Source of the DNA: Lophium mytilinum
Lineage: Eukaryota
Reading direction: 5' to 3'
Assembly (NCBI GenBank): GCA_010093605.1
Contig: MU004194.1
Location: forward strand, 1,030,323 to 1,094,322
DNA length: 64,000 nt
Shown here piece by piece: positions 6,333 through 29,326 of the stretch; position 1 is the first letter of the stretch, and every line of letters begins with the position of its first letter. The translations under genes and the position numbers were made by a program. The notes beneath the pieces are model-generated. The model was not told the origin of the DNA and did not search any database. It saw nothing but the letters and a program-made list of their open reading frames with translations.

Positions 6333-7692
6333 ATGGCGGGCACGCAGCGATATCTGCGCTACATCATATTTGCACTTGTGGTACGTCAATTCAATGCGTA
6401 TCGTTAGCCATTGCATGTGCTGACTCCCTCCAGTGCCTAATCCTTCTCTTCTTCATCTCCTCATCCTCCACCGTCCCCTCGACACCGTGGCAGAACGGCA
6501 AACCGGAGACAGTGGATGAGCCCGAGATTGGGAACCAGAGCACCTCGCCCAAGACTGCCCCTACGACCCCGAATACCCAGAACGAGCTTTCCCCGGCCAC
6601 CGCATCTGGGGACCGTATGAACGCGACCTTTGTCACTCTTGCCAGGAACTCGGATCTCTGGGAGATTTCTCGCTCCATTCGCCAGGTTGAGGACCGCTTC
6701 AATCGCAAGTTCAACTACGACTGGGTCTTCCTCAACGATGATGACTTCGACGACGAGTTCGTCAAGGTTACCACGTCCCTAGTCTCCGGCAAAACAAAGT
6801 ACGGCAAAATCCCCACCGAGCATTGGTCCTTCCCCGACTTCATCGACCAGGACAAGGCTGCTGCAGTCCGTGAGGAAATGAAGGAGAAGAAGATCATTTA
6901 CGGTGACTCTATCAGCTACAGACACATGTGTCGATATGAATCCGGGTTTTTCTTCCGTCACCCGTTGATGCTGGACTACGAGTGGTACTGGCGTGTGGAG
7001 CCCAGCATTGAGCTCTTCTGCGACATCAACTACGATACCTTTAAATTCATGGCCGACAACAAGAAGAAATACAGTTTCGTCCTCAGCTTGTACGAATACG
7101 TCGAGACCATTCCAACCCTTTGGGACGCCGTCAAGAACTTTACCGCATCACACCCCGAGCACATTGTCAAAGACAACTCTATGGGCTTCCTGAGTGATGA
7201 TAACGGCGAATCTTACAACCATTGCCATTTCGTAAGTACCACGAAGCACCCTTACTTCCGTAGATCTAATTTTGCTCTCGCAGTGGTCCAACTTCGAGAT
7301 CGGCAACCTAGACTGGCTGCGCTCGAAGGCATACGTCGATTACTTCGAATCTCTCGACCATTCCGGCGGCTTCTTCTATGAACGATGGGGCGACGCGCCT
7401 GTGCACTCGATCGCGGCTGGTTTGATGCTCCAGAAGGACGAGATTCACTTTTTCAACGACATTGCATACTACCACGTGCCCTTCACCCATTGCCCAACGG
7501 GCCAGCAGACACGACTGGATCTGAAGTGCCACTGCAACCCTAAGGACAACTTTGACTGGAATGGGTATTCATGTAAGTTGAACGCCACCATCATATAATC
7601 GAAACGTGTCTCTGACCCTTTGAACAGGCACTTCGCGCTTCTATGAGGTCAATGGAATGACAAAGCCAGAGGGGTACGAAAAGGAGCAATAA
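6333..7692 (+). CDS. Alpha-1,2-mannosyltransferase, glycosyltransferase family 15 (KRE2/KTR/MNT1-like)
   Basis: Type II anchor ([24 protein letters not shown]); motifs [48 protein letters not shown]. Three short introns. Confidence 0.93.
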
Positions 7693-8443
7693 ATACCGTT
7701 AAACCAACACCAGTAATTCCCACTCACCTCCAACTACTCTCCTCGGCAACCCCCTCATCCTCTCCGTATCACTCATCATACACCGCGCCCCCCAACTGAC
7801 TCCTTTGCTGTCGGATAGCGCTCCCGCATCTGCTAAGGAATGGAGTTTCTGGCTCCTCAAACGCATCTTCCTTGTAATCCTCATCATTGCGGCGTTAGGC
7901 ACTTGGCTAGGTTCGAAGACAAGGCGGCCCGGGTTCGGTTAAGGAGTGCGTATCACTGGAAACAAAGCCAGATCTGCATTATCTATTTGCTCTTGGTTGC
8001 ATCTTTCATTCGCGCTCCGTCGTGTACTTGATGGAATAGGGACTGCTTTGTGGTTTAAGACTACGCTGGTCGGCAGGTGGCGTTTATGGATGTGCATGGC
8101 ATTGCACGGCATGGCTTGAGCTGGACAGTTAAGGGAAATGTTTTGCAGTTACGTGTGTATCATCAGCTTCACGACAAAAACATCGAGTTCGTCGTGAGCC
8201 AAACCAGGTTTCTTCATCTTGCTAAACGGTCTTCAAGCTAGTCTTTGTGGCTAGCTCATATCTAGAGCTGTCAAATCCTCAGCCGTGCTAGTTCCTCCCC
8301 ATCCTCAGTCAACTTAATAATTTATATCGCCAACGAGGTCGCCATTTGACTCACTTATCTGGAAAGAAGAAGAAGTGTATTCATCGTAACACAGGATTCG
8401 TGAACCATGTCCTACTACAGGGCGTCTCAAATCCATCTCTCCT

Positions 8444-9355
8444 CTACTCTTCCTTCGAGAAGAACCCAACATCCCCACTCACCTTTCCCAACTCCACTAG
8501 CCTCTCCAGCATCCCCTCCGCTCTCACCTTAACCTCTTCCTCCAACGCCCCAAAATCACACCTACCCACCCACTCCCCAACTCCATGCTGCAGCACATTC
8601 CTCGCCCTCCCCTTCCCACCCCTCACACACCCCACACTCCCATGCAACGTCATCCTCTCCCTTCCCTTATCATACGCCCCACGATGCAAAATATTATTAT
8701 CATAAAATACCACATCGCCAGCACCCAACTTCACCTTTATCTCCCCCTCTAACCCCCTCTCATATGGCCCCGCCGCCCTCTCCTCTTCCGTCCTCGCCCG
8801 CCTCTGACTCCCCGGCACCACGATCAAACTCTCATCCTCGTACAGCGGCAGATTCCACTGCGCATGCCATGCCGGCCGCCCCAACCTCTCCATCTCCTCT
8901 TCCGGCCCCGCGTCCGCCGGCACGTCATCCCGGTGCCACCGCAGCTCGAAGTCTTCGTCAGGCCGGACTAAGAGATTGTAGAGTTCCATGACCAGCTCGT
9001 CCTCAGTGCAGCCCCCGCCGATCAGCTCAGCCACGACGGCGAGCAGCGGCGCGGAGAAGTAGCTTGAGGCGAAGAGGAGGTGGTCGGGGAGGTCTGGGTG
9101 CAAAAGGTGTTGCACGCCCCAGATCCCCGCCGAGGGGTCGGCGGGCCAAGGAGGAAACTGCTTGGGGAGCGTGCGGATGTAAGGCCAGGCGCCGGAGCGG
9201 GCGAGGGCGGTGGTGCGGGCGGCGGCGGCGCGGAGGGCTTCTAGAGTTTCTGGGGGGATGAAGGAGGGGAGGATGACGAAGCCGTCATGTTCGAGGGTGG
9301 CTCGGAGGTGGGATTTGGGGAGAGAGGCGGTTGTTCTGGGTATTTCGGTGGCCAT
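8444..9355 (-). CDS. Phytanoyl-CoA dioxygenase (PhyH) family 2OG-Fe(II) oxygenase
   Basis: LEHDGFVIL N-terminus, WHRD iron-binding motif, LIVVPGSQR, GDVVFYDNNILHRG, RMTLH. Confidence 0.85.
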   Translation of the reverse strand: MATEIPRTTASLPKSHLRATLEHDGFVILPSFIPPETLEALRAAAARTTALARSGAWPYIRTLPKQFPPWPADPSAGIWGVQHLLHPDLPDHLLFASSYFSAPLLAVVAELIGGGCTEDELVMELYNLLVRPDEDFELRWHRDDVPADAGPEEEMERLGRPAWHAQWNLPLYEDESLIVVPGSQRRARTEEERAAGPYERGLEGEIKVKLGAGDVVFYDNNILHRGAYDKGRERMTLHGSVGCVRGGKGRARNVLQHGVGEWVGRCDFGALEEEVKVRAEGMLERLVELGKVSGDVGFFSKEE

Positions 9356-9905
9356 TTTGGCAGAGGGAGGGAAGCTACATTGGAGGGGGTTTGGGGGGGT
9401 TATTAGTTGGGTCTACTTAGAGGTGGTATGGCTATGTTGTATCGTGATGTTGAGTTGGAGTTGAGATGGTTCGGGCGAATGAGGGCCGATTCGATAATGT
9501 CGATGCTACTCACGTGACATATCATCTCAGTACCCAGTTGAAGTATTAGGAGGAATATTACGTGCCAATGGATGAAGTGGTTAGGAGAACAGAAGAAACA
9601 ACTCTGTAGTGACACACTTAGGTAGTTCATAAATTGATATAGTTTGTGAATGTTTCGATACCAATATATTGTTCATTGGGTGACGCCTCTTGACGCACGA
9701 AAGGGTTTGATAGATACAAGTAATCGCGACGGATCTCGCTTCAGAAGAACGTAATGATCCCATCTCTATTCGATAATGGGGTTGTAACAGAATGAAAAGC
9801 GTCGAGAACTCCGTCCCAACGGCCGTTGATGTTTGCAATGATCAATTGCATATGGTATCCGTGCGAAGCCTCTTGGGCTAGACACACACTGAACATGATT
9901 CTCCT

Positions 9906-10501
9906 CTACATGTGAGCACCAGCGTTGCCCCATCTCCTCAAGTTCTCCGGGCCAGCGTGCTCGCCGTCGATCCATCGCTTCAGGGTATCCATCCACCACT
10001 CCTTAGGCTCGTCCTCTCGCTTTTCGGGAACAGTAGTGGGAACAGGTAGAGGCTTCAAGGCAGTGACAAAGGTGGAAGGAAAGGGAAAGCCAAAAGAGCC
10101 GGTTCCTGTGGGGCCAGCTGTACCGACAGTACCAGTACCAGTTGTAATGAGAGCTCCTCGGCGCTCACGCCTAGCGCGGCCGGGAGTTGGCTCAGGAACG
10201 GCGAAGGGTGCTGAAGTCGGTGCAAGGTCATATCGGACCTTGAGCTTTCTGACGCCAGTGGCTACGGGAATGGGTACGAAGCCACTGCTGGCAGTGCCGG
10301 TAGGAAAGCCGGTAGGGAAGCCTGTGCTAGCGGTAGCTATAACAGGGCCGTGCTGGTAGCCAAAAAGGTCGGCGAAGATATCTTTAGGGAGAAGGTCAGC
10401 ATCTAAGGTTCTTCGTAGGGGTGGCATGGCTATCACGTACCAGCTGATGCTACGCCAACGGATCCAAGGATCAAGAAAGATCGGAGAGTGTTGAAGAGCA
10501 T
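9906..10501 (-). CDS. Secreted Thr/Pro/Gly-rich protein with dibasic sites
   Basis: ATG at 10501 encodes the signal peptide MLFNTLRSFLILGSVGVASA. A GTACGT...AAG intron (10440-10382, GCTGAC branch site) joins it in frame to DIFADLFGYQHGP... of the 9906..10568 ORF. Confidence 0.65.
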
Positions 10502-12366
10502 GGTTGCGGAATTGCTCTATATAATCGGTACTCGGAAAGCGAATGATAAACGGTCTTTCGAATGGCACAGCCAGAAAGAGTGAAAAAGGAGCAGCGAAAG
10601 ACAGACTACCTAAGACAAGTCTTAGGATTGAAAGAAGGTGGTGGTAAAGTGAAAGAAAAGAAGCTCAAGAGCTTGAATAAGTAGAGAACGAGAGTGAGTC
10701 CGCGATACTCAAACGGTACAGAAGAAAGCGGATGTACTTGATGAAGCAGCTACATTGCTCCATTTATTGGCTTTCTAAGGCTATCCCGCCTAGTTGATTG
10801 CTTCTCCACAAAAGAAGCAGCAGTACCACGATCTCCTTCCATAACAACCGTTACAAAGCCCTGCAGTACTACCCTCAAGCCTCATTGGAAGCACACCAAC
10901 CCGGTACTTCTGCAGATCGTGAACAGAAACATGTCGGAGAGGCCGGGAGGATGTTTCTGTTTCCGGGTGGTCGCCCAATCAACGGAGCATCTACTATTCG
11001 TGCCGCCAGAAACGATGCATGAGCGACCTCGCCAAGCTCTCTAAGGCAGGAGGACGGTGGTACGCATGCTCCTTCCATTAAGGTATTCGGCCGTTGAGTT
11101 AGATGGCAGTGTACCAGGGAGAGAGGATCTTGCGGCTGTAGGGAAGGCGGCTAGGAAATAAGGAGATTAAGTCCACTTTTTCGCTTGCCGATCCGTTTCG
11201 AGCGCCCCTGTTCACGAAAATGATGGCGAATCACATCCCCATCACGTGTTTCATCCTCCTTCAGCCGATTACGAGTCGCATGAACGCTAGGGACCCATTA
11301 AAACACTCAACTACAATCGTCTTTCTTCGATTAAGTGCGCCACCGCAATAGGAATGTTCTTGATCAAAGCACTGTTGCAGACCAAACTCCGAAGTTAACA
11401 TCCTTGTTCCTGAGGTGCATTTGGCTATCGACTTCAACGACGGGATCACGCAACAAAAGGTCCTATCTCGAGAACACTGCCTTATCTTTCGGCGAGCTGT
11501 TGCGAAACTAGGCTCAGGGTGGCTGTAGGAATCTCGGAAAGATTACGAACGACAGCTGACCTCTTCACCACACCGCAAAGGCCGTCTTTGTCCACCAAGA
11601 TCATCCTATTCTTTCAGCATCCATATACGATAGCTGATACACAGCTAGCACTTACGCATATGATAGGGTACTGAACCGCCGCACTTTATGAGCGGAAGAC
11701 CTGCCGGAGATGCCTACGGTTCATTCATTCCCGGAGCTCAAATCCCGTCTGGATGTTTCACAGCGCAGCTCGGCCCATCTAGGCATGTCTGGTCTGAGAG
11801 TCAAACGAATCGCTCTTTCTGTTATACAAGCCGAAAAGGAAAGCCCGCTTTAATCCGAAAGACTAAAAATTGCTTGATATTCTGCGATCCTATCAACATT
11901 TCAGAAATTGAATTTCATTCCCTTCATCATTCCGCTTCATTCTCTTACTTGATGCCCATTACATGAGCACTGGATTCTCACTCCTCCCCCGGCTCTTTGG
12001 TTGCTCTACAAGCAATTTTAGTCATTAGTGATGCTTCTGCAGAATGACATCCATGGCCGAACACGATCACTCATCGTTCCAAGGGTTAAGCCTCTACAAT
12101 CTACATTGTGTGTACGCCGTCTAAGGGTTGTATATACACCACGTCTTTTGCTTTCAGCGGCCACACTCTGTGTTCTTACACCGATTCGCATTGGAGCTGC
12201 ATATTACAGGTGTGTTCTTAATTTTGCTGGTTTATAAAAAGATCCACACATCCAACCTTCACTCTAGCAACATCTTCTCCCGTTCTCTCGCGCAACAGAA
12301 CAAACGCCCCAACAACAAACTCAAGACCCTTCTCTTTGTAGACCTCTCACCAAGCCTTCCGGAATC

Positions 12367-13110
12367 ATGGATCGACCGCTCATCATCCTACCGGACTACC
12401 TTCAAGAGGAGGTCAGCCATCTCCCGAACATGAACGAACTCTTCGAGATGGAGGAGTCGGTTCGTCCCTGCACCTGGGGCAGCTTATACCATATCCTACG
12501 ATGCGGTCACAAGGTTCGCACCACCACTTCAGAGCGATGTGCAGAGAACTGCCGCATCTTTTGGAATGAGACAGATTTCGCTTACCCACGGTGCATCGAA
12601 AAGGAGCTACGCTCAATCATCGCAGCTGGTGGCGCCATGGACATTCCTGATGAAGACATCATTGAGGACATCAAGTTCGCTATTGAAGCTGAGATCGTCG
12701 CAAGTCGGAAGCGTGTTGCTACCACGGTGATGTATCGCGATCCTATAGAAGACTTCTACAGGGACAACTTCCCAGAACTGGTGGAGGCGGACACACTGAT
12801 GGAGACCACGCAGATGGAGGATGTCCAGCGCAAGTTCCTGCGTACTTCAGCGCGAGCACAGCCCTGGAACCCGGAGATCTGGCAGCGATACCACCGGAAC
12901 CATGTGGCTGATGCTCCAAATCCTACTCGTCGGTACACTCTGGCGCCAGTTCCTGCCGATAATCTTATGGATAGTCTGACTAAGGACTTTCAGTCATTTG
13001 ACACTGTAGTCCAGGACGACGAACACAACGCTCAGGTTGACGAGATCGGTGATCTGTTCGGACGTCTTGAAGCCAAGGACTCAGAACCAGACGTAAACAT
13101 GTCCACATAA
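12367..13110 (+). CDS. Orphan Cys/His zinc-motif protein, paralog 1 of tandem array
   Basis: Intronless 247-aa ORF with motif CTWGSLYHILRCGHKVRT..RCAENC..FAYPRC. Collinear and clearly homologous over its full length to 13733..14479. Confidence 0.75.
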   Translation: MDRPLIILPDYLQEEVSHLPNMNELFEMEESVRPCTWGSLYHILRCGHKVRTTTSERCAENCRIFWNETDFAYPRCIEKELRSIIAAGGAMDIPDEDIIEDIKFAIEAEIVASRKRVATTVMYRDPIEDFYRDNFPELVEADTLMETTQMEDVQRKFLRTSARAQPWNPEIWQRYHRNHVADAPNPTRRYTLAPVPADNLMDSLTKDFQSFDTVVQDDEHNAQVDEIGDLFGRLEAKDSEPDVNMST

Positions 13111-13732
13111 CGGTCGACGCTATTGATGACTAGTATAAATGAGGCTGCAATCATCAGCAGGACTTGCTGGACTTCACGTCGTGGTGATATCATGAGCAAA
13201 CTCTAATTTGGTCGATACTTCCGCTATCCCAAAGAATACTGTTGACTTGCAAGTGTCTGCTCCCTACTGAGACCTTGATTGGTGAGAAATTCTCCCAACC
13301 AAATAAATCATATCAAGAACTCGTATACCCTGCTATGTTTCTTTTACTTCACGTCGAGTACGTAAATAATGCCCGCTATACGTTTTGTGAGCCCTTTTCT
13401 TCCAAAACACTCCTCTTCTACCGTGTTTAGAACCAGTCATACCTCTACGAAACGACCTCAACGATCATCGGCTTCTCGCACCATGTCTCCTCTATGTACA
13501 TTGTTTATATATCATTCACATCGTTTACATACGCGACAGGTTTCACTTCCACAGCAGTGAAGTGAATGTCCATGATGCGCAACGGGACTACACAATGAAG
13601 GGGAAGATTCACTTTTGCTAGCGGATGAAAAGTCCTTCGCATGCGCTCCTCGAATCTTCACCAAATTCCAGAACTGACCCCCCCAACAGCAGTACCAAGT
13701 CATAGGTCACACGACGTCCCCGGTTGCCAAGG

Positions 13733-14479
13733 ATGGATATACCTCTGATCATCCTCCCTGCATACCTTCAAGAGCGTGTCCAGCGGCTGCCGTCATTGCA
13801 CATCAGCCCTTCCGAGATGGAGGAATCGGTCCGCCCATGCGCTCCAGCCAACGGAAGCCTGTACCATATCCTCCGATGTGGTCACAAGATCCGAACTACT
13901 GAGCCGCAGCCTTGTGGCCAGAATTGCAGGATCTTTTTTGGTAAGCCTGAGTTCTGCTGCCGTCGCTGCGTAGAGAAAGAAGTTCGTCAAACTCTTGCGA
14001 TTGGCGGTGAACTGGCAGTTCCTGAAGAAGAAGTACAGGAAGAGGTGAATTGGGCCATCCAGACTGACCTAGGCCTGTGTGGGAAGCGCGCCGCAGAGAC
14101 GGTCACCTACCGTGACCCGGTCGAGGACTACTATCGCGACCGCTTCTTCCCTGAGCTTGCTGCCGAAGACTACGAATCAACTGAGATGCAAGGCGTTGAG
14201 CGTAGGTATCGGCGAACTTCGGCTCGTGTTGAGCCTTGGAATCCTGAAATCTGGAATCGTTTTCATCAACGTGACCAGAACGGACAAACTCGCCGACGTC
14301 GGTATACGTTGGCGCCGGCTGTTTCTGATGTTCTCGTCGATGACTTGACCGAAGACCTCCGACAGCTCGAGGCTACAGTGCGCGATGAAGCACAGGATCA
14401 TGAAATCGATGTGATTGACAACTTGCTTGGCCATCTCCAGGCTGGAGAGTCGAGCCCAGACGCTGAGACGTCGCGATAG
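13733..14479 (+). CDS. Orphan Cys/His zinc-motif protein, paralog 2
   Basis: Start MDIPLIILPAYLQE; motif CAPANGSLYHILRCGHKIRT..PCGQNC..FCCRRC. Shares YRDP.ED.YRD, RTSAR..PWNPEIW and RRYTLAP with paralog 1. Confidence 0.78.
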   Translation: MDIPLIILPAYLQERVQRLPSLHISPSEMEESVRPCAPANGSLYHILRCGHKIRTTEPQPCGQNCRIFFGKPEFCCRRCVEKEVRQTLAIGGELAVPEEEVQEEVNWAIQTDLGLCGKRAAETVTYRDPVEDYYRDRFFPELAAEDYESTEMQGVERRYRRTSARVEPWNPEIWNRFHQRDQNGQTRRRRYTLAPAVSDVLVDDLTEDLRQLEATVRDEAQDHEIDVIDNLLGHLQAGESSPDAETSR

Positions 14480-15889
14480 GTAAGCCCAGACGTGACTTGC
14501 TAGTAGTCTCGTTTTCAGAGCTTAGCTTCTATGACGCGGAGTCTTGAGCATTTCTCGATGCAGCGGCTATTAACTACGGAGACACTGAAGCTGTTTTCTT
14601 GGGCGATGGACGTCTTGTGAACGGTATGTGGAGTAGGTATAAGGATATTTCTCCCCTAGAATAGCTAGATCTTGATCAGCGAGAAACTCTCCTGATCGAA
14701 CCAATGAAGGCCCCTCCCCCAAATATGAAATTTGCTATTGGTCATCGAGAGCCGTTCTGTCATGATGTGCAATCTAATCACAAAATTTAGGGAGACTTCC
14801 ACTGTTGCTGATAGAGAAGAGGAGCTGCAGATAGCGAAATGGCATGGAGGAATGAGGTAGACCGGCGGTAAACGTAAAGTCCGCCGAATTAGATAAGAAC
14901 GCGCTTTGTTTCCTAAACATCTACTCTTCAAACAAATGAAAGCCCGGGATCCCCTTCTGCCCGCAATATCAATTTCTTCTCAAGAGAAATCCTGGCCTAA
15001 GTGCCATTTGACCAACAGTGAAGATTAACGAGTAGATCAGCCCCCTTTCTGTGACGTATCTGTACAGATATCTGCACATTGTCACTCAGGGCATGAAAAG
15101 GTGGCACTCTCATCTTGGACACGCCATGATGGATGTATACACGTGCATGCCACTGTTTGGGTTGCCTCACCGCATTTCCGGAAACCTGAGCTACTTTACT
15201 ATGGACTTCATGAATACTAGCTGAAGTACTTCAAACAGTGGCAGACAAGTGTACATAGAACAGAGTAGTGAAGAGTGTGCCAGATACTTCTTAAACAAGA
15301 GTGACTGTCTCGCTACCGTCCATGGGTGCTTCAACACACTTCAAGATATTGGAAAAACCTAGAGCGTCACCGTTCCAAGTAGTTCGTGAAATCGTTAAGG
15401 CACTGCCACGGAAGGCAAGCAACTGTTGTTCAGCGCCGTTCGATTGGCGTCCTGAACTTCTTGACATCTTTTGCCAACGCTTGGAGATGGTCTCCATCAC
15501 CCAGCGCAGGAATGAGCATTGTAAAGAGATGATGAGAAGCACTGACCAGACGCTATAAACCATCTCTACTTCACCCTAGATCACTAACAAACGCGGTGAA
15601 TGCCTGACAGCGTCCTAACCCCACGTCACGTCACATGTCCACCGCCCGATATAAATTCATAACAACGCGGCCTTTTCAACCCGCCATTTCGCAACTACAA
15701 ATCTCCCACGGCGCAGACTCACAACCATCATTCACCAAGCTCCATTTCGCCGCAAATCGCACACTAAGCAATCGCACGCGACCCATTCACCCACCATCAG
15801 TTCGCCGCGAACCGCGCACTGAGCACTCTCAGGTAAGCAGCTATCCAAAACACTCCACAAACCGCACTACCAAAGCAGCCACCGCAACC

Positions 15890-16669
15890 ATGTCCCGCCG
15901 AGTCCCGTGGCGCTACCGCCTCTTCGACCCCCCCTCCGAACCAACCACCCCCGCTCCATCACCAGAACATCCCACCGCCCCCCTCTCCCTCGAGCAGTTG
16001 GCCGCCAATGTCGCGCCCTGCATCCCAGACTCTCCGTACCATCTCCTCGCCTGCGGCCACAAGATCCGCACCCCCACTTCTATGTCCTGCGGCAAGAACT
16101 GCCAGCAGCCCGGCGACTTGGAGGAGTTCTTCTGCGCGCGCTGCTTCACAGAACCTTTGTTGGAGGGTTATATGTCTGAGGAAATGGTGAAGGCGCGGCT
16201 CGCGCGGGCAGTGGCGGAGGATTGTGGGTTGTACAAGATGCGGGAGTGTGAGGCCGTGCAAGACAGGGAGGGGATAGATGACCTTATGGCTGAGATGTTT
16301 GGGGAGGAGTACGAGAAGGCGGAGGAGGAGGCTAAGAAGGAGGAAGGGAAGGTGAGGAAGCGGCCGGGTCGGGGGTCCACTGTGAGGACAGAGGAGAAGG
16401 AGGGGACGGAGAGGAAGCGGCCGGGTCGTGGGGCAAGGATGCCGCAGCGTCCGATGATGAAGATAGAAGAGGCCGAGGAGAATACAGGCGGTGAATTGGG
16501 CCGGACGGCGGGGACAGCTGCGTTATCTGATGAACTTGCGAGGCTTCCCGGGCGGGATCAGCTGGATGGAGGAAGAGATCGAGCCCGCTCTGCGTCGCCT
16601 GTTCATGAGGGTGTTCGACGCCGTCGCTCCCGATCCCCGCTTCCGAGGCGTAAAGAGACTGAAGACTAA
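15890..16669 (+). CDS. Orphan Cys/His zinc-motif protein, paralog 3 (basic/RS-rich tail)
   Basis: ATG at 15890 (MSRRVPWRY); motif CIPDSPYHLLACGHKIRT..SCGKNC..FFCARC; duplicated RKRPGRG; C-terminal RRRRSRSPLPRR. Confidence 0.72.
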   Translation: MSRRVPWRYRLFDPPSEPTTPAPSPEHPTAPLSLEQLAANVAPCIPDSPYHLLACGHKIRTPTSMSCGKNCQQPGDLEEFFCARCFTEPLLEGYMSEEMVKARLARAVAEDCGLYKMRECEAVQDREGIDDLMAEMFGEEYEKAEEEAKKEEGKVRKRPGRGSTVRTEEKEGTERKRPGRGARMPQRPMMKIEEAEENTGGELGRTAGTAALSDELARLPGRDQLDGGRDRARSASPVHEGVRRRRSRSPLPRRKETED

Positions 16670-17074
16670 TTCTGGTAATTTGGCATATGGGCGAATAAGG
16701 AGAAATTGTTGGTAAAGGGAGAAGATTGCCCGAAAGGGGCCTTTGACTCGTTGTATGATAGTGTTGGAAGAATGCAGCTCCATATCAGAAGCCTGAACAT
16801 ATGCCCTTTGAAAAACCTTTTGCCACCGTTTGAAGTGCCCTCATATGTTTCTATGACTTGAGTATGATGCAAAGATTGATGAAGTCGTTTTCCGGCTACC
16901 TTTTGATCGAAAGCTCATAAACTAGCTAGGAACCTCCTTATAGTCGTGTCGAGCGTTCAAAGATGGAGGTTGAGTAGTAAGATATCCGTGTGACGAAGGC
17001 ACCGTATGCATGTACGAAGTGCAATTCGACATGCAGATAGACTGGACTGCATTTTGGTCAACCTACTGCCTCAT

Positions 17075-17425
17075 ATTCGCCGCCGCTTGGGGTACCCCCA
17101 TAGGTTTTAAAGAATCTAAACATGATGTTAATGTCGACGCTGCATGACTCGGATTATAATTTTCAGAGAATAGCTACCCGCTGGCGGGGCCATCCTGACA
17201 GTGGTATCGCGGGAGCAAGAGTGGAGCTTGAGTAGTGGAATATGCGCTCGCCTACATTTCAAGCCTGTTCTCACGTTATAAAAGTTTAGAACAGTGTAAA
17301 TCGCACTACCTCTTGACTGGTTTACTACCTGAGAGCTGAGCTACTCCTAACACTGGCGTCGAATAAGCAAGGGCAGAGTCTCACTAGTATGAACTCGGTA
17401 TGCCCGAACTTATGAAGTAGTACTG
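17075..17425 (-). mobile_element. Degenerate copy or copies of the ~220-bp MITE family
   Basis: Contains gcttggggtacccc, ctacctcttgactgg, gctactcctaacactgg and ends gtatgcccgaacttatgaagtagtactg, matching the reverse complement of the 56023-56238 and 37058-37509 elements. Confidence 0.6.
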
Positions 17426-17657
17426 TGCCGTGAAACAGATAGGTTATAAAGAGAACGCGTAGAGGTCAAAGAATCTAATGACGCCTTGACCAATCCTTTC
17501 ACCATTGTGACGGCACTACATCGCTTACATTAGCCGCAAGACCTGTTCTGTTGAGATCGAACCTACTTTGTAGAGCTTCCGCGACCTTCGCTAAACCTTT
17601 CCTCACTCTTATACCAACAACAACCGACGTAACAAACGCCACAGCCTACCCTCAACA

Positions 17658-19556
17658 ATGACTTCCCCCAAGAGCGCACACAAATTCGATCCCAACTTCT
17701 CCAAACGCGACGCAGAAGATGGCCCTCCAGCCACACCGGCCTCCGAGCTCTTCCCCAGCGGCTGGGCCACCACTTTCGGGGACAACCTTCACGCATTCAA
17801 TCCGTCGCCGTTGGACCTAGGCGCCGCGGGCAGTGAACTCCACCACCGAACTAGCTCGGAACAGTACCATGTCACCCATGAAGAAAACACTTCTGATCCT
17901 GGAGACCCGATGGACATGACGGACGAGGAAGATTCAGGAATGCTAGCTAGTGGCGAGGACTCTTCTAGCTATGACGAGGAGACGACGTCTGCGCTACCGG
18001 CACCGGCGGGTGCACAGCACGGCAGTCCCGTTGATGACGGTCTTTGGGCGGCTGGGACGGAGGATCAGCCTATTGAACTCGATTCTGAAGACGAGTCTGA
18101 TGGCAACCTTGCCGGCGATGTTGATGAGAATCAGCCTATCGAGATCAATTCTGACGACGATTTTGAAGAGGGCCAGCCTATTGAACTCGATTCTGCCGAC
18201 GGGGCTGATGGAAATCCTGCCATCAACATTGATGAGGATCAGCTTATGGAGTTCTATTCTGACGACGACGATGCTGACTGGGATCAACCTGAGAAACTGT
18301 ATTCTGGCCCCGAGTCTGATGAGGAATCTGATGGCGAGTTGGAAGAGGCATCTGAGGGCGACTTGGTTGAGGAAAATAACGGCGAGTTGGATCAGGAGCC
18401 TGATTCATCAACCATGCTCGCCGACGGCACGGCTGCGGCTGTTATGGATTCAGTTGAGGTCCAAGACGCCGTCGTGCTGGAGACAGATACTCAAGAGGAT
18501 GTTACTTCCAGCGAAGAAGCTACCAGTGAGCCGGAATCTCTCGCCCTCACTGAGATCCCCGGACCAACCACCACCACCCACAAGCCTAAGCAATTCCGGC
18601 TCCGCTGCGATATGGGCCAGTGCATCCATATCTTGCGCTGCGGCCATGCAGTAGTCGCCATCGACCCTTCCGACGGATGGATATGTGGAAAAAATTGCAT
18701 CAGGAAACAAAACCGGTCCAGCGTCAAGGGAGAGTTTGGTTGCCGTCTATGCCTTCGACTGAACAATGGGCATGCGGTATCTTGGTATCTCCACCGACTA
18801 GACGACCTGCTACTGCCCCGCTACGTCCCGGCGGACGAGCCCAAGAAGATGGCGAAGTACCGGCTGACCGAGATCGTTTTTCTGGTGAGCGACAGCGATG
18901 TCTTCCCGCGAGCCATTCGCGCGCCGCCCAACACAGGCGTGATCCGAACACCGCTGAGTAAGGAGGAGCTTGCCTTCGACGTTGCTGGCGCTACAGTCAT
19001 CGCGGCGGATACGCTGAAGAATATCGGCGACATACGCTCAGCCGTCTCAGTAGCTGCGACGAGAGAGCACCAGCGATACGAGAAGGCTAAGAAGGCGGCC
19101 CGCACATTACAGCCGCGTGTCGACCTCAAAGCCAGAGAAGAACTGATCTCTCAGATCGAGCACTTCAGCAACCAGTTGGAGCTCGAAGTTGCTCCTGACA
19201 GGCCTGCGGGCTGGGGAGCCAAGATGACGGCGTGCTATATCTTTGAGCTTGTCGAGTATGGGACGAAGCTGTCGCTGTTTCCGGTAGATGTTGTGATGGC
19301 CGCTTGCATCGTCACGGGGTTCGAGAGGCTACAGTTTGAGGTCGCAGGCGTGTTCGCAGGCGCGTCGATCGTTAAAGTCTGCGAGTTGATGCAATGCAAG
19401 GTGGATGAGGTTGAGGCCGCAATGATAGCTCTCAAGGAAGCCTTGTATTGCAGAGCTGTCACCTGGGCTGGTTATATTCCACGCTCATTCAAGCGGACGA
19501 CGTCGCAGCAGGAGGTTTTGGTGTGGATTGCTAAGGAGATGTTCCCGAAGGTGTAG
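17658..19556 (+). CDS. Cys/His zinc-motif paralog 4: acidic SIM-like repeats, zinc motif, TFIIB/cyclin-like C-terminus
   Basis: 632-aa ORF with repeated QPIELDS/QPIEINS in an acidic region, motif CDMGQCIHILRCGH..ICGKNC..FGCRLC, and helical C-terminus IEHFSNQLEL...VVMAACI...VCELMQCKVDEV...GYIPRSF. Confidence 0.75.
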   Translation: MTSPKSAHKFDPNFSKRDAEDGPPATPASELFPSGWATTFGDNLHAFNPSPLDLGAAGSELHHRTSSEQYHVTHEENTSDPGDPMDMTDEEDSGMLASGEDSSSYDEETTSALPAPAGAQHGSPVDDGLWAAGTEDQPIELDSEDESDGNLAGDVDENQPIEINSDDDFEEGQPIELDSADGADGNPAINIDEDQLMEFYSDDDDADWDQPEKLYSGPESDEESDGELEEASEGDLVEENNGELDQEPDSSTMLADGTAAAVMDSVEVQDAVVLETDTQEDVTSSEEATSEPESLALTEIPGPTTTTHKPKQFRLRCDMGQCIHILRCGHAVVAIDPSDGWICGKNCIRKQNRSSVKGEFGCRLCLRLNNGHAVSWYLHRLDDLLLPRYVPADEPKKMAKYRLTEIVFLVSDSDVFPRAIRAPPNTGVIRTPLSKEELAFDVAGATVIAADTLKNIGDIRSAVSVAATREHQRYEKAKKAARTLQPRVDLKAREELISQIEHFSNQLELEVAPDRPAGWGAKMTACYIFELVEYGTKLSLFPVDVVMAACIVTGFERLQFEVAGVFAGASIVKVCELMQCKVDEVEAAMIALKEALYCRAVTWAGYIPRSFKRTTSQQEVLVWIAKEMFPKV

Positions 19557-20281
19557 GATAGTGATGTGAAGTACAGCCTTAAGAAGGAGCACTGATGGCT
19601 GAACGGAACGGTCCGAGAAATGTGTGAAATCCAGACGGTGATAGAATCCTTGAATAAGAAGACAATATATAAAATCCTCGTCAGTAAAGCAGTCAAGACC
19701 CGGGAATCATAGGCAGAGCTCGTTGGCTTGACCCCCCTATGTGAATTGAACTTACCTGAGGCAGCGGCTACAGGCACCGGTATCGCCTTGAGACATCCTC
19801 GGGTCCCGAAACGTGTTCTACGCGGCAACTTCAAGAATAGCGCTTCGTAAATTGTCCGTAAGGGATAGTGGTAGGCAGATTAGGAGAAAATGACTGCATG
19901 CCATGAGTTGGTAGGTCTTGATGAGACGGCTGCGCATAAGAATATCGTTCTTGAGACAACCCACGCCGTACCGATAATTGCAACTTGACACTTCCTAACG
20001 ACAGCGGGTTGCTAACGGGGAAGGAGAACATGGACCCCGGATGCTAAGGGTTCGTAGAGATATCATGAATCAACAGTGTCTACGAAGAAGATTGCGCGAG
20101 ATGATGCAGAGTCTCAATCACACTGGGAACTACTATACTAATGCACTCGAAAATGTCAGAAGTTCGTGTTCGTCAACTAGGAGATTAGGAAATGGAAAAC
20201 GTGATTATATCTTCTAACATCTAGAGCAAGTTGGAGATGAATTTTAGCACTTAACGCATCACCAATAGGTGTTTCGAAGTA

Positions 20282-20506
20282 CTGTAAGTGGCCACAAGCC
20301 TGTGCACCATTGTTTGCTATTACTTAGGTGGCCTCATGGAGCTTCAACACTGTAGGCGCTAAATCAAGTTTCAAGCAGTGCAACTTGAGTTGTGTTCAAT
20401 TGATTAGCTTCCTGGGAACGCGTCGCTCCTGACAATTACGTCTAGGTTCCAAGATGGCACTTCAGCAGTGGTATATAGGTGCGCCTAGACTTGAGGTGTA
20501 GCACTA
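20282..20506 (-). mobile_element. Degenerate MITE copy immediately downstream of the nitrilase stop
   Basis: Starts ta-ctgtaagtggccacaagcctgtgcac, contains ttcaagcagtgca, ends gtgcgcctagacttgaggtgtagcacta. Same length and termini as the family. Confidence 0.6.
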
Positions 20507-20511
20507 CAAGA

Positions 20512-21858
20512 TCAAGGTGGAGGATTCAGGTCTAGCCCTTCAACGTGGAGCTTAAAGGCATCATTCCTGGAGTAAGACCCCGCAACGTCAAGGTCCAGTC
20601 GGCCACGCTCACAGTCTTCGAAGTCTGCCTCGACAACCAAAAGCTTGCCATCGGTGACTTCCCAGAGTGGGCCAGCGAGTACCTCACCCAGTGGTGACAC
20701 GATACACGACCCACCTCTACAAAGGAACTCTTCATCGTCTGTACTAGCGCCGTAGCTTTTCGAAGAGATCGAACCCGTGGGACTGGCTTTAGGAAGAGGC
20801 CATGATATTTGATGATGTTCGGCAGTCTCCGTGATGATCGACTTTCTCCTACCTAGTGGCCCTCCATCACCCTCTTCATCAAATACCGATGGCGGATGGC
20901 TGGTTTGAACACCGTTCTCCTTTGGAGAGACCGAATCGTCTTGTTCTTCGGCATCCTTCTCGACGATTGGCCAACAAATTTCATGCTTATCCTCCGTGAA
21001 AGTGACTGTAGATCGTCTTCGACGGTGTGATGGGAGGACCTCGGTGCTTCGAGGTGGTTCGTTTTTGTGTGGAGTGGCAGTGGTCCCTTGGACCCACGGT
21101 GGTAGATGCTTCCTCTTAACACATTGATTAGCACTTAGCACGAATGCCCTGCTCTCGCATCCCACCGTCTGCATGAGTGGTAACCAGGTATCCCGCGCGT
21201 CGGCTGTTGGTGCCAGATACAGATTGACATTTTGTGAATAGAGACTATGTCGGAGGAGTGGCATGTAGTTCTCCCAACAGATTGCAGCAGCCAGCGTCAA
21301 CTTGACTCCCTGGATTGTTGTTGTGACGGCGCGTAGAGTACTCGGGCTTCCCTGTGCCCAGATCAACCTTTCAGATCCTGTTGGCATGACCTTCCTCCTC
21401 TTTCCGAGCACTCCGTAACGTGGACACACGTATACAACGCCGCAGTATAGGCTGCCTCCTGCTTTCTCGACGAGACCAGTGACGATGAAGACGCCGGTCT
21501 CTCGGGCTATCCTTTCCAGCTCTTCCCGGGTCCCATCTCCCCTATATTTTGTGTCCTTCGCTACGGGAAGCTTCTTGTCTACCCAATCGTCTCCAGCGCC
21601 GACTGGTGTGTCTCCGAGATCGACTGCAGCATGGAAGTATTGGAGGAATTGTTCGCGTCCGATGGGGTCTCTAGCTCCCACTGAAGCACCGAAGCTGCAG
21701 GTTCGCGGGTATCCGCCGAGGTAGGCTTCGGGAAATAGGACCAGATGGACGCCGGATTGTGATGCTGAGCGCGTTGTCTCTTCAAGAGCGTGGAGAGTGT
21801 CGACGGTAGAGGACAGAGTTCGGGCTTGGGCTACTGCGAGTTTCAATTTTTGAGGCAT
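20512..21858 (-). CDS. Nitrilase / carbon-nitrogen hydrolase
   Basis: Triad motifs LVLFPEAYL (E), [15 protein letters not shown] (K), AICWENYMP (C); C-terminal [14 protein letters not shown] at 21858. Confidence 0.92.
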
Positions 21859-22475
21859 TGTATCGTCAGAGTGATGCAAACTATCAGCTGAGTCTGGATA
21901 ATGGTAAGGTTGAGAAGTACGAGCTTCCGCTGATTGATGAAGAGACGGGTGAGTGAACGATTGAGTGCGGGGACAGCTTTGTCACTCTACCCTCACCAGT
22001 CGCAATCGGGGTGCCAATATATCCACTAACTCACCAACCGCCATACCCGCACACAAGACTGGAAAGGAAGCTCTGTGAGCTGAGGGTATGCACATAGCTC
22101 ACGAGGTTGAACTGCAATGCCTCGAAGGTTGATTCCGCCTTGCTAAAAGTAGGGAGGAGCTAGCCCAAAACTGTCTACTGTTTCCGAGGCTTCTTTGACG
22201 CTTCAAGCTTCATTCCCCATTCGTCCCGTAACCTTGGTCGTTTATTCATGGTCCGCACCCTGGTCTCGTATATGAGTGTCATATGATTCTGCAAAGAGTG
22301 TGTCTAGAGGATGGCGTGGATGGCTAGAGTGACGCTATAGTACTGCGCCTCCACATTCCTTGTCTGCAGCGGGAACACAAGACAGGTGCCAGTATAAGAG
22401 AAGCCAGAATCCGAGGCGATTTGCTTGCAGTAAGAGGCCTCTTGCGACCGAAGATTCTTGTCATCTAGAATTACA

Positions 22476-23165
22476 ATGGCTGGCAAGGGCGAGTATGTAG
22501 ATGTCACCAAGCAGACCGAGGACTATGTCGACGTCACAACGGCACCACCGGCATATAATGAGCCTAGTGAAGCGGAAGGGTCGACTTCTGAGAGCAGGGC
22601 CTATATTGACGCTTTGAAAGCAGATGCCAAAGGGAAGGAACATGGGTAGGTGGTCCGGCTGAGAAGGAACAGGCGTTCACAGTTATTTTACTGTTTCATC
22701 TCGCTAACCTCACTATTCCTCAGGCAAACTCTAAGAGAATCATCGAAAGAAAGCTCGTCGAAAGCTGAACTATCAATCGCCGAAGAAGTAGCATTAGACA
22801 TCCGCTCCCTAGACGTCGGCGACCCGAATGAGTCCATTTCAGTGCCCATGATTTTGTCCACCGAGAAGCGCTCTTTTAAGTCTTTCATCAAGGGAAGAAG
22901 CGGCGAAATTTCTCAGCAAGTCATTGTGCGAAAGATGACGCGAGAACATTACAAGAAGTTCTATGCCAAAGATAAGAACGGTAATTACATCGGCACCGAG
23001 AAGGCAGCTCCGGACGCTGGACTGGTATTCGTGCCGTCCAAAAGCACATCGGAGGATATCTTGGAGCAAGTGAAGAAGGTTGCGTTTGGGAAGGAGCATT
23101 ATATTGATGGCTTTGGGGGTGCTTACGGTTATGGAGGAGCCGGAGGTGCGTACGCGGCTATGTAG
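22476..23165 (+). CDS. Hypothetical protein (two exons)
   Basis: ATG at 22476 (MAGKGEYVDV) and an intron ending CTAAC...CAG at about 22723 join to the ORF VIVRKMTREHYKKFYAKDKNGNYIGTE. Confidence 0.65.
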
Positions 23166-24781
23166 ACTCCGGGCGAATAGTGAATATGTTTCTAAACGCC
23201 GTCTCAGATGCTTGAATTCGCTGGGCTACTATGATTCTCATCCCGAATGGAACGATAGTCTGTTAGCGGATATAAGAGCGTTCAAGACGCCTATTATCCA
23301 ACGGGACGCCTCGAGAAGACCCTGCTGGCGCAACATGCCCCAACTCCAGGGCCCATTCATCGAGCGTCCTATCCTATAGTTTCATCAGCTTCATTGGCGT
23401 CACCAGAAACATGACTGTCGTGTCCCCTTTCCACTCTCGTGCTTTCGGCGCCATACTTGTTTGTCCTTGGCCTCAACAGTATTGCGATACTGCCTCCTCT
23501 GATGATCAAGAAACGCCACAAATGTGTTTCATTGAGCCTTGAGTTTTCAATGTAGCTAAGTAGTCATAGCTCACTGCCCGCCAGGTTTATTGTGGATAAG
23601 GTGTCGCATGACAGAGACCATAGTCCGTTGTGAAATCGCCATCCCTTCAATAACCCCAAGCCCACTCAGTCTCCTCAGACTAGCGGGCCTTACTTCTTGG
23701 AGGAGACGTCTATTTTCATGCATGTAGACTAGAGAAGATATCTGTTACGCAGGACGGACAATGGTAGGTAGCAATCGGTAGCTTTCAGAAGCCCCATCCA
23801 TTTATTTTATATGAGGTTCTCACGTATAGGAAGCAGCTACAACCGCTTCTTTCTCTATTCTCTAGCTTTCTCATACATTTTTGGGCACACCATAAGTCTA
23901 AATTGTAGACGGGCTGAGCCCGCGGACGGCTGACGGCAGTGATGGCTCAATTTAAGACCTACCTCTGCGCTTTTCGCAGGCTCGCACGATATCAGCCACC
24001 GCCGTCTTGAGGATCCGAACGATCAATTGGTGGCGTCCATTTGATTTTGTTCAGAGAGACGATTCTTTTGTGTAACGATTGCCGAAAAGGAATCATGGAG
24101 ATAATCAGTTGCGAGTAGTGCCTCGTCGCAGTATATCTGAAACCCCTCTTGAGTTGACCGGTGAAGCATGGGTCTCGTATTCGGTCCACGTACTGTCCCA
24201 TTTACACCTACAGAGAGGCGACACTCTGCGGGACATCAAGATGGAGGTCCACGATAGATATTCTCCTGTTGCTCCTATTATTACGCCGAAGTGACCGGCA
24301 CAACTTGCACCCCCACGCGCCTAACAGAGCCCATGCAGCCGACATAGACCTTCACCGGCTTCTAGAAACAACGGATGGCGTTTTGCGTGGAGCGGCACGC
24401 AACGGACTCGAACCCCTGGTGAGGAAGAGTGCGGCAGATCAGCAGATGCCCCTGGCGTGGCACTGTGCATCGCGGGGCGCTCCGAAAAACGTGTCTCGGA
24501 TCCCCCCCCAAACCTCACCGTAGCCAGCCACCACCTCAACCACCTTCCCAAGTCATCTCCGTTCACACCACGCTTGAGCTCACCGCACCGAAGTTGAAGC
24601 GAGTTTTCAATAGATGAAGACGGCAGACGCGGCGCCATCTATCTCTCGCCTCCGGCACTTGTCTGATCTTCTACATATGGAACACTTCAGGCAGCTAACA
24701 TAGCCGCGCCGCTATCATATATCTGGATTCAACGCCGCCTGTAGCTCCTCTCTAGGGCTGCCACAATGCATAAGGCGAAGA

Positions 24782-27564: not shown

Positions 27565-28429
27565 CGGACTTCCCTTTTTTACTGCGATTTAAAAAACATC
27601 GATGATATCTAATTAAGCTGCCAAATGAAACAATTATTGTATACCTTCTGGTCGAAGCTTGTGTCAACGCTCATGCTCGGCTAGCGGTATAGTTGGACCT
27701 GTTCAGAGACGCGGTCTTCTATATTATCCCGTATTCCACGACTGTATTCCATATATCATCATACGTGCTTGATCGCTACTAAGTACTGCATTTGGCGGGT
27801 TCCCCTCAATAGGAAGGAGCTGTCCACGAGTAGGTACTCCTAAAGCCCCCCCGCCCCCCACTCCCTCCCTAGATTACACGGTTACAAAGGGCACAATCTC
27901 TTCGGGCTTGTTTTGTACACTTGTGAAGCACTATCTAAAGTCCTCCAAAAGACCATTAAACACTTCGACCCCTATAATTTTGGCAAATCCGACAGTTCTC
28001 TCGACAACCCCAGACGATGTCGCACTGAGAAACGTCGAATAGCTCTGGCGTTTGAAGTCTAGTCCAGACTGCTTCCAAGAATTCCGAGATTCACACAATA
28101 CATTTGTCTGTCGACATTTGGTGATGAGCGTCCATTGAGCCCACAATCGACGAGAGAAATACCTAGCAATGGGGCCAATAATCTGCTATGGAGTGGGGTA
28201 ACACGGTGCCCTACCTAATTGGGTGGCCTACAAGCTAGACCTAACAGGGTCGCTACGTAGCTGTTTATAGTTTCGTCTTATCGATTAAACGGTAGCACAA
28301 CTCACATCAGCTCAGCTTCAGCTCCTGAGCTCTCCCGTAACACCAGCCTGCCCAACACTTGCAGCTTCATCAAACATTCACGGCAGAGTTTGTCCAATCA
28401 TCCTCCAATTGCAACCACGCCCATCCACC

Positions 28430-29326
28430 ATGTCGAAACGAGTCGCCCTCCTCCCGAAGCCCATCCCCTCGAACGAGGTCAACGTCGGCCAACTCCTCGT
28501 GCACCCCCTCCACCCCGAAATCGACGGCTTCTTTAGCGAGACGAAGGCCGCTGACGTCGACGAATTGAACGACTACTTCATCCAACTCCGCTACAAGGAC
28601 CTGTTCAGCGTGGACACCGAGGGCCGCTTCGCCCAGAATTTCGGCGCCAAGTTCGACCTTGGGCAAGTCTATCGGAAGCCCAACCTGCTGAGCGTGACGG
28701 TCGAACAGATGGTCCAGCGCGTCTCCAAGCATCCCTACGCCAGCTTCGCGACCGTGTGCGAGGACCCCGAGGCGCAGGCGTGGATCGCCGAGCTGGCGAA
28801 AGAAGAGAAGGCCTGCTACATCGTGCTCGGCATCACGGAGTTCAAGAACGCAGTGTTCAAGCGCGCGGTGCTTCAAGATGGTGGCGTGAGCAACCGGCTC
28901 AAGGAACAACCGATCGAAAAGGGGGCGAAAGTGCCACGGTCAGTGCGCCGAGACAGCACGCTGGGCTTGGGCACGGAGGCGCACCTCAGTGGCGTGTTCG
29001 GCATGGACGTGCGGCGTATCAAGGCCAGGGTCTCGAGGGTGCAGGAGCCGCATACTATCGAGGACCTGAAGTGGAATTGGATCTACTACGACTTGCCTGG
29101 CTCGCCGGGCTTGCAGCTCATGATTGGGCTTGGGGAGAGCTTGAAGGCGGAGGAGCTGCGATTGATGCTGGATCTGAGCGAGGAGGAATCGAAGACGAAC
29201 TTGGAGGTTATTTCGAGCTTGAGTATGGATGCGTTGCATGCTGCTGCGTCGCCGATGTTGAGGCCTAGCTCACCTGCACTGCGTGGTCGATCGCCGTCTC
29301 CAAATCCGGCCACTATGCGGCTATGA
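28430..29326 (+). CDS. Putative fungal gasdermin-like protein
   Basis: Intronless 298-aa ORF whose motif order (VNVGQLLVHP, beta-rich segment, FATVCEDPEAQAWI, CYIVLGITEFKNA, GVFGMDVRRI) parallels RCD-1/HET-Q1-type gasdermins. Product is inferred by eye. Confidence 0.6.
   Translation: MSKRVALLPKPIPSNEVNVGQLLVHPLHPEIDGFFSETKAADVDELNDYFIQLRYKDLFSVDTEGRFAQNFGAKFDLGQVYRKPNLLSVTVEQMVQRVSKHPYASFATVCEDPEAQAWIAELAKEEKACYIVLGITEFKNAVFKRAVLQDGGVSNRLKEQPIEKGAKVPRSVRRDSTLGLGTEAHLSGVFGMDVRRIKARVSRVQEPHTIEDLKWNWIYYDLPGSPGLQLMIGLGESLKAEELRLMLDLSEEESKTNLEVISSLSMDALHAAASPMLRPSSPALRGRSPSPNPATMRL

Follow-up and report, generated by a model that had tools for sequence, protein, structure and literature searches.

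The locus considered here raises the question of what an intronless fungal open reading frame encodes that appears to join SUMO-interacting motifs (SIMs), a cluster of cysteines and histidines, and a relative of a general transcription factor. It lies in a 64,000-nucleotide stretch of Lophium mytilinum DNA, herein called the window, to which all coordinates refer. A preliminary description of the gene had proposed a fourth local paralog with five SIM-like repeats, a RING-like motif, and a TFIIB/cyclin-box-like tail—meaning either a STUbL-like ligase or a transcription-linked protein with an unusual domain combination. The parts of the protein are described in the following from the N terminus, the C terminus, and the middle, together with the alternatives on which each part bears.

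The gene, its relatives, and the acidic N-terminal half

17658..19556, plus strand: open reading frame P0001, intronless, 632 aa, found once in the genome, without a Pfam family

The open reading frame (17658-19556, plus strand, 632 aa) and all peptides quoted in the preliminary description are present in the sequence, and the frame is unbroken across 632 codons. Its C-terminal half occurs in one copy genome-wide (43.4 Mb on 49 contigs searched). The flanking genes encode PAT1, a glycosyltransferase 15, a PhyH protein, and a nitrilase. Sequence searches of P0001 and of its tail against Pfam, PHROGs, and PDB gave no significant match, and Rfam has no family across 10000-24000 of the window. One unnamed PHROG was matched at E 0.004 by a single one of the three family members.

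Two homologues were found, P0002 from Mytilinidion resinicola with 67% identity and P0003 from a JGI record with 43% identity. They are the only ones among 6,979 candidates of 347-1106 aa, and a second, independent search returned the same two from 1.84 billion representatives. The family is narrow and lineage-restricted, with three members. Pattern scans confirmed as relatives none of 89 metagenome and none of 123 viral candidate stretches, and an Atlas search with aa 308-425 gave no usable match. Conservation is uneven along the chain: aa 131-250 share only 21-28% identity among the homologues, and aa 310-632 reach, by segment, 59-73% with P0002 and 30-58% with P0003, with invariant Cys and His residues. 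The accessions of P0002 and of P0006, a homologue of the open reading frames upstream of P0001, are two apart and belong to same-sized contigs; this spacing suggests a conserved cluster.

The N-terminal half contains the following features:

17658..18572, plus strand: acidic N-terminal half, aa 1-305, 28% D+E and 2% K+R, predicted to be disordered
18063..18200, plus strand: SIM-like units 1-3 (DQPIELDSEDE, NQPIEINSDDD, GQPIELDSAD) with the cores PIEL, PIEI, and PIEL
18237..18308, plus strand: degenerate units 4-5 (DQLMEFYSDDD, DQPEKLYSG), no SIM pattern match

In the full-length model, this half has a pLDDT of about 22-35 and almost no secondary structure. The five units first described as SIM-like are all found at 18063-18308, but only units 1-3 have a SIM-like core, no longer present in units 4 and 5. 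Units 1-2 and units 3-4 go back to a 101-nt direct repeat with 81% identity and, being the product of a single duplication, are not independent of each other. The SIMa, SIMb, and SIMr patterns were taken from PMC3395311, and significance was estimated from 5000 shuffles of the N-terminal composition, with 250 of them as the chance level. Strict SIMa matches P0001 once, in unit 1 (PIELDSE, P=0.08), P0002 not at all, and P0003 twice (P=0.016); SIMb and SIMr gave no match. Relaxed SIMa has four, three, and two matches in P0001, P0002, and P0003 (P=0.0002, 0.004, and 0.33). The word PI[DE][LI], picked post hoc with the sequences already seen, occurs three, two, and three times in the same order, counts that 0 of 5000 shuffles reach in each case. 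Extended by a serine or acidic residue, it is found a single time in a redundant sample of other open frames totalling 53,109 residues.

These numbers bear on the reading that the acidic repeats are tandem duplications drifting in a disordered region, leaving all function to the zinc module and cyclin fold. The 101-nt duplication, the decay of units 4-5, the uneven strict SIMa counts, and the looseness of SIMs as motifs (PMC12751080) speak for it. Against it, the extended word is kept in all three homologues amid diverged surroundings and is rare in other frames. Drift is judged unlikely, the recurrence of PI[DE][LI] in diverged homologues suggesting selection, and the credible SIM-like motifs, as read from the sequence, appear to number three rather than five. 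The SUMO gene of the same genome is interrupted by an intron before its last strand.

The predicted C-terminal cyclin fold and its relation to TFIIB

18768..18932, plus strand: conserved segment, aa 371-425, 71% and 58% identical in the homologues
19125..19457, plus strand: predicted cyclin fold of five helices (aa 490-600), present once, net acidic, with TFIIB repeat 1 as nearest match
19470..19541, plus strand: basic linker with GYIPRSF and predicted final sixth helix, aa 605-628, conserved

The AlphaFold2 model of the tail (aa 470-632), built from an alignment of the three family members that contained no TFIIB, has a pLDDT of 77.5 and a pTM of 0.77. Five predicted helices (490-511, 521-538, 543-561, 571-578, and 582-600) are followed by a sixth at 615-628. 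In the full-length model, all of aa 1-453 lies below a pLDDT of 50; this includes the conserved segment aa 371-425, which is therein modeled with low confidence and shows no match to the N-terminal region of TFIIB. Foldseek with the tail returned nothing at E<=0.001; Brf2 and yeast TFIIB lead with E 0.045-0.049 and a probability of 1.00. Exhaustive structural alignment against 48,161 chains places yeast TFIIB 121-231 on top (Z 12.5, rmsd 2.8, 109 aligned residues, 17% identity), followed by human TFIIB (Z 12.0) and archaeal TFB (Z 10.8). According to the tool, helical bundles matched with a Z below about 13 may share no more than a common arrangement. The ranking largely answers this caution: ranks 1-37 all go, by title, to the cyclin-fold superfamily, and the highest-ranked unrelated entry has a Z of 5.9. 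Judged by its model, the tail is a member of the cyclin-fold superfamily, a predicted five-helix bundle nearest to TFIIB repeat 1, and the cyclin/TFIIB-like tail of the preliminary description is borne out by model and fold search. Cyclin_N (PF00134) has no Pfam match in P0001, and the locus is absent from the seven matches to this family genome-wide.

In sequence, the relation is weak. A fungal TFIIB profile was built from 32 distinct sequences, comprising the genome's own TFIIB and uninterrupted cores from 35 of 80 loci, duplicates removed. By hhalign, the tail matches the profile of repeat 1 with 61% probability (pairwise E 8e-5, 51 columns) and that of repeat 2 with 2.8%, and helices 1-3 of the tail align in register with the former. 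When the query is reversed, the score falls from 31.9 to 11.8. None of 100 column shuffles attains the hhalign score; among block shuffles, none of 200 with four-column blocks and 2 of 200 with seven-column blocks do. With hmmsearch, the signal for the three tails is 2.3-5.2 bits, scores reached by 7, 0, and 5 of 300 shuffles. A TFIIB repeat in the tail is below any Pfam threshold. Sequence comparison by itself thus suggests the resemblance to TFIIB repeat 1 weakly; a TFIIB origin of the tail is likely, if not proven.

P0001 is probably not a working TFIIB. Canonical, intact TFIIB and BRF1 genes are found elsewhere in the same genome, and of the tandem cyclin fold of TFIIB (PMC4910066) one repeat is present here, as the reading frame stops 32 aa past the first bundle. 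The net charge of the repeat is -8, -5, and -5 in the three homologues versus +6 to +9 in the 32 TFIIBs. Yeast TFIIB residues K190, K201, and K205, which affect transcription (PMC2396426), correspond in P0001 to V572, D583, and A587 in a global alignment of 2% probability; these positions are basic in 31, 31, and 32 of the 32 fungal TFIIBs. Compared with a fungal TFIIB N-terminal profile covering ribbon, B-reader, and B-linker, aa 310-490 score 0.1%, meaning no similarity.

GYIPRSF had been taken for the YIPRF start of a second repeat. The peptide is present at 19470-19490, but this reading is unsupported because the second repeat is absent and the match is out of register. In the sequence alignment, the final helix occupies the YIPRF position and GYIPRSF lies about 12 residues earlier, in the linker; the structural alignment with yeast TFIIB stops at residue 231. 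Yeast YIPRF (238-242) itself aligns with LIGRA in the genome's own TFIIB. In the model, GYIPRSF is in coil, and the homologues read GHNYRSL and GHIPRSF; the Tyr is not conserved.

The same evidence weighs on the idea of a TFIIB decoy or specialized initiation factor, in which the tail would dock on TBP or Pol II and the SIMs would steer it to SUMOylated pre-initiation complexes, competing with or replacing TFIIB at a developmental stage. In its favor, TFIIB repeat 1 is nearest in both fold and profile, a conserved basic linker follows the cyclin fold, SUMOylation of general transcription factors at promoters is reported for yeast (PMC8505008), and lineage-specific TFIIB-like factors work in plant reproduction (PMC7865254). 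It is weakened by the loss of the three lysine equivalents, by the lack of a second repeat, and by a middle region unlike zinc ribbon, B-reader, and B-linker, and is considered unlikely, on a par with drift of the acidic repeats. Predicted together with the C-terminal half of TBP from the same genome, the tail scored 0.00 and 0.00; these values, obtained with the alignment unused and with no controls, are evidence neither way. By simple pattern, two of the three homologues have no clear basic nuclear localization signal.

Alternatively, the tail may have a cyclin-box ancestry other than TFIIB, either as a CDK partner or as an interaction fold like those of Rb and ORC6. In the structural ranking, cyclin C (Z 10.5) trails TFIIB by just 2 Z units and cyclin D3 has a Z of 10.1, and identity to any TFIIB or cyclin match is <=18%. 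On the other side, TFIIB and TFB hold the top five ranks, and among the genome's own cyclin-fold open reading frames, TFIIB scores 27.0 against the tail and the other nine, seven cyclins among them, <=17.6. A control profile made of the genome's own cyclins is insensitive, as TFIIB itself scores 0.5% against it. Atlas feature matches are mostly TFIIB-family at 0.84-0.88, which is below 0.9 and hence provides leads only, with a TM of 0.52 to a TFIIB cluster. Such another origin is improbable; descent from TFIIB is the preferred account of the tail.

The His/Cys module and antisense RNA at the locus

The motif described as RING-like is present in P0001, but its ligand spacing fits no RING pattern. 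It recurs in three open reading frames upstream:

12367..13110, plus strand: upstream ORF 1, 247 aa, contains the module with the seventh ligand changed from Cys to Tyr
13733..14479, plus strand: upstream ORF 2, 248 aa, contains the module, 49% identity to ORF 1
15635..16669, plus strand: upstream ORF 3, contains the module, start codon uncertain (15635 or 15890)
18606..18752, plus strand: His/Cys module of P0001, C317-H324-C328-H330-C343-C347-C362-C365, non-RING spacing

In P0001, the module reads C317-x6-H324-x3-C328-x-H330-x12-C343-x3-C347-x14-C362-x2-C365, and over all copies C-x5/6-H-x3-C-x-H-x9/12-C-x3-C-x10/26-C-x2-C. Genome searches found at least 11 copies in at least nine open reading frames: four in the window, one on C7, a tandem pair on C4, one with three copies on C14, and one on C1. 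The tandem pair also has PHD-like Cys/His clusters, recognized by eye and with no significant Pfam match. All 11 copies agree at H, C, H, C, N, C, F, and the final C; Cys stands as the seventh ligand in 10 of them, and nine have an upstream Cys. Of the designation of P0001 as a fourth paralog, the part that stands is this module of about 50 aa, the only one common to P0001 and the three upstream frames (tblastn E 9e-5 to 0.03). The module has no significant Pfam or PDB match, and in the full-length model its region has a pLDDT <50, the fold search being dominated by the tail. Going by its sequence, it is an unannotated, mobile, probably two-zinc module.

RING function depends on a cross-braced two-zinc fold (PMC8586995). 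None of nine proteins compared matches the RING-HC, RING-H2, RINGv/PHD, or PS00518 patterns, with ligands spaced as C3HC4, C3H2C3, or C4HC3. Pfam RING matches are at chance level only: zf-RING_13 with E 0.24-0.32 and 12 bits versus a cut-off of 25, and zf-RING_5 with E 0.24 in one of the 11 copies. The 11-copy profile, compared with solved structures up to E 10, found no RING; three solved sequences appear at E 0.6-1.9, none of them a RING. Two further identities were tried and rejected. A permissive, ad hoc SP-RING pattern hit P0001 and P0002 via the non-conserved C322 and missed P0003 and six others; as a degenerate TFIIB ribbon (CxxC-x15/17-CxxC), the module reaches 0.7% probability against the ribbon profile.

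A STUbL, in which multiple SIMs and a divergent RING would ubiquitylate SUMOylated substrates, is therefore unsupported, as the Cys/His spacings are unlike RING and the RING matches do not rise above chance. The order of a multi-SIM N terminus followed by a Cys/His cluster is that of RNF4 (PMC3901395), and the motif has LxCGH and a final CxxC beside the chance-level matches. Set against this are the patterns and profile just described and the occurrence of the module in eight other open reading frames, of which the four scanned contain no SIM patterns. The STUbL-like reading of the preliminary description has become very improbable. A ZNF451-like SUMO E3/E4 ligase or elongase, whose paired SIMs would place Ubc9~SUMO and whose folded parts would pick the substrate, fares slightly worse and is highly improbable. 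Two correctly spaced SIMs suffice for ZNF451 catalysis, in which the spacer is critical (PMC12751080), and SIM cores 2 and 3 of P0001 start 14 residues apart; but core spacing is not conserved in the family (22 and 14 in P0001, 44 in P0002, 19 and 38 in P0003).

RNA evidence comes from one run, X1 (presumed RNA), compared over 5000-23000. A 7,370-nt contig of X1 spans 15985-22644 and beyond, skipping three stretches. The features concerned are as follows:

17116..17255, minus strand: intron, GT..AG, upstream of the open reading frame
17516..17566, minus strand: intron, GT..AG, GCTAAT branch site, about 90 nt upstream of the ATG
19669..19755, minus strand: intron, GTAAGT donor, TACTGAC branch site, non-canonical AT end, downstream of the stop
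20512..21879, minus strand: convergent nitrilase-family gene (PF00795), candidate read-through source of the antisense RNA

All splice joints adjoining P0001 are minus-strand. As such introns lie on both sides of the gene, spliced antisense RNA is present on either side and probably spans the open reading frame itself, the strand being read from splice signals in one assembly. Besides the nitrilase gene on the minus strand, the contig takes in an intron of the following gene, which is on the plus strand, and therefore merges at least two units. After splicing, the antisense strand over the gene has no noteworthy coding frame, the longest being 111 aa. X1 contigs cover upstream ORFs 1 and 2 barely or not at all, which does not indicate that they are silent. 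In Schizosaccharomyces pombe, sexual-development genes are known to be overlapped by read-through antisense RNA (PMC3738847). That the gene is silent or decaying and the locus relevant only as antisense read-through is the least probable reading of all, for although the adjoining splice joints are all minus-strand, the 632 codons are intact, aa 310-632 are conserved by segment, and Cys/His are invariant.

A proposed SUMO-recruited adaptor and its known counterparts

The explanation put forward, tentatively and with somewhat less than an even chance of being right, is that P0001 is a lineage-restricted, TFIIB-derived, SUMO-recruited nuclear scaffold or adaptor. Herein, the acidic disordered arm with about three SIM-like motifs would bind SUMO chains or SUMOylated clusters by avidity, as described for the SIMs of RNF4 (PMC3901395). 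The mobile His/Cys module, with two putative zinc ions, and the conserved segment would form a folded middle part. The cyclin fold most likely descends from repeat 1 of a duplicated TFIIB and, not having the basic surface that faces DNA and TBP, may now serve as a protein-binding domain. SUMOylated chromatin or transcription complexes would recruit the scaffold, which would modulate them in the role of an adaptor, being neither an initiation factor nor a RING ligase. Spliced antisense RNA may keep the gene off in the sampled condition, and its expression may be stage-specific. The claim of a transcription-linked protein with an unusual domain combination holds up, because the cyclin fold is nearest to TFIIB repeat 1 and SIM-like motifs recur in all three homologues.

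A bolder version would have a duplicated TFIIB give rise to a charge-inverted single repeat joined to the two-zinc module and the SIM array. The product would act as a stage-specific decoy or alternative partner at SUMOylated pre-initiation complexes and would otherwise be silenced by antisense read-through from the nitrilase gene. It is considered rather unlikely.

P0001 is a real gene whose domain combination is unusual and apparently undescribed. In the literature, no fungal or SIM-bearing single-repeat TFIIB derivative was found in a search that mostly left out subscription journals; the supplements of the plant review and of its source survey could list fungal TFIIB-like proteins. If the adaptor reading is true, the gene is a compact case in which a core transcription factor was taken apart and newly connected to the SUMO system. 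The locus also draws attention to an unannotated, probably zinc-binding module with at least 11 copies in one genome. The weight of this is limited by the narrow distribution of three sequences and by functions predicted from sequence and model.

Compared with known systems, P0001 shares with repeat 1 of TFIIB (Sua7; PF00382) the predicted five-helix fold, with helices 1-3 in register. It differs by its single repeat, the lack of similarity to ribbon, B-reader, and B-linker, the acidic surface, a match below Pfam thresholds, and the normal TFIIB retained beside it. The SIM-like motifs in an acidic disordered N terminus, followed by a Cys/His cluster, are reminiscent of RNF4 and Slx5-Slx8; here, however, there is no RING, a cyclin fold is added, and the internal module also occurs in SIM-less open reading frames. 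Scaffolds of the ZNF451 and SLX4 type likewise combine repeated SIMs with zinc-binding modules in largely disordered chains (PMC12751080). No homology to them is expected, SIM spacing is unconserved in P0001, and a cyclin fold is not described in the passages of that source on these scaffolds. At the level of the locus, spk1 of S. pombe offers a parallel with its antisense overlap, possibly by read-through from a convergent neighbor (PMC3738847), the strand being read here from splice signals in one assembly. A truncated TFIIB derivative as such is already a known kind, since AtBRP3 and AtBRF5 of Arabidopsis are lineage-specific truncated derivatives with one cyclin fold that exist beside a normal TFIIB (PMC7865254). 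Both keep the linker and AtBRP3 also the zinc ribbon, and the passages of PMC7865254 that deal with them describe no SIM array or foreign zinc module. Set against them by description, P0001 is a fungal and far more diverged counterpart.

Distribution of the His/Cys module and state of upstream ORF 1

The His/Cys module, which is unannotated, follows the pattern H-x-L-x-C-G-H...C-x2-N-C...F-x-C-x2-C and occurs in 11 copies distributed over nine open frames, counting frames in which the module is uninterrupted. Besides the gene itself (17658-19556), its carriers in the Lophium mytilinum genome are the following:
window 12367-16669 (+), upstream ORFs 1 to 3
L009, contig C7
L104/L108, contig C4, with PHD-like fingers in addition to the module
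L105, contig C14, with three modules
L109, contig C1

Upstream ORF 1 (12367-13110) is 49% identical to upstream ORF 2, representing a tandem duplication. Its seventh ligand is Tyr instead of Cys; the Cys is retained in the Mytilinidion homologue P0006. Upstream ORF 1 may have been in decay since the duplication.

Antisense RNA and the intron 3' of the gene

The RNA contig that spans the gene extends into the 3' portion of upstream ORF 3 (15985-16669) as well; hence, the antisense RNA may stretch across two of the clustered genes. One intron lies 3' of the gene:
19669-19755 (-), intron with GT..AT ends

Herein, a perfect donor (GTAAGT) and a branch site (TACTGAC) are combined with a non-canonical 3' end, AT. 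The splice joint is supported by a single RNA contig and cannot be shifted. An AG is present directly past the branch site, probably too near to it for use.

Further reading frames

Elsewhere in the genome, L118 (G000:C7:1082200-1083500) is a spliced gene that encodes several divergent ubiquitin-like domains and, C-terminal to them, an unrelated tail. In the window, the Pfam search assigned no family to the long ORFs 28409-29326 (+), 34218-35333 (-), and 45966-47273 (-), and gave only a chance-level match for the first of these two features:
53486-55177 (+), 563-aa ORF in which ~12-aa repeats (VQAGxQxxEATQ) are arrayed at the C-terminus
48406-49973 (+), two neighbouring frames, the second carrying DUF7580 (E 3e-12)

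The two neighbouring frames probably form a single spliced gene.
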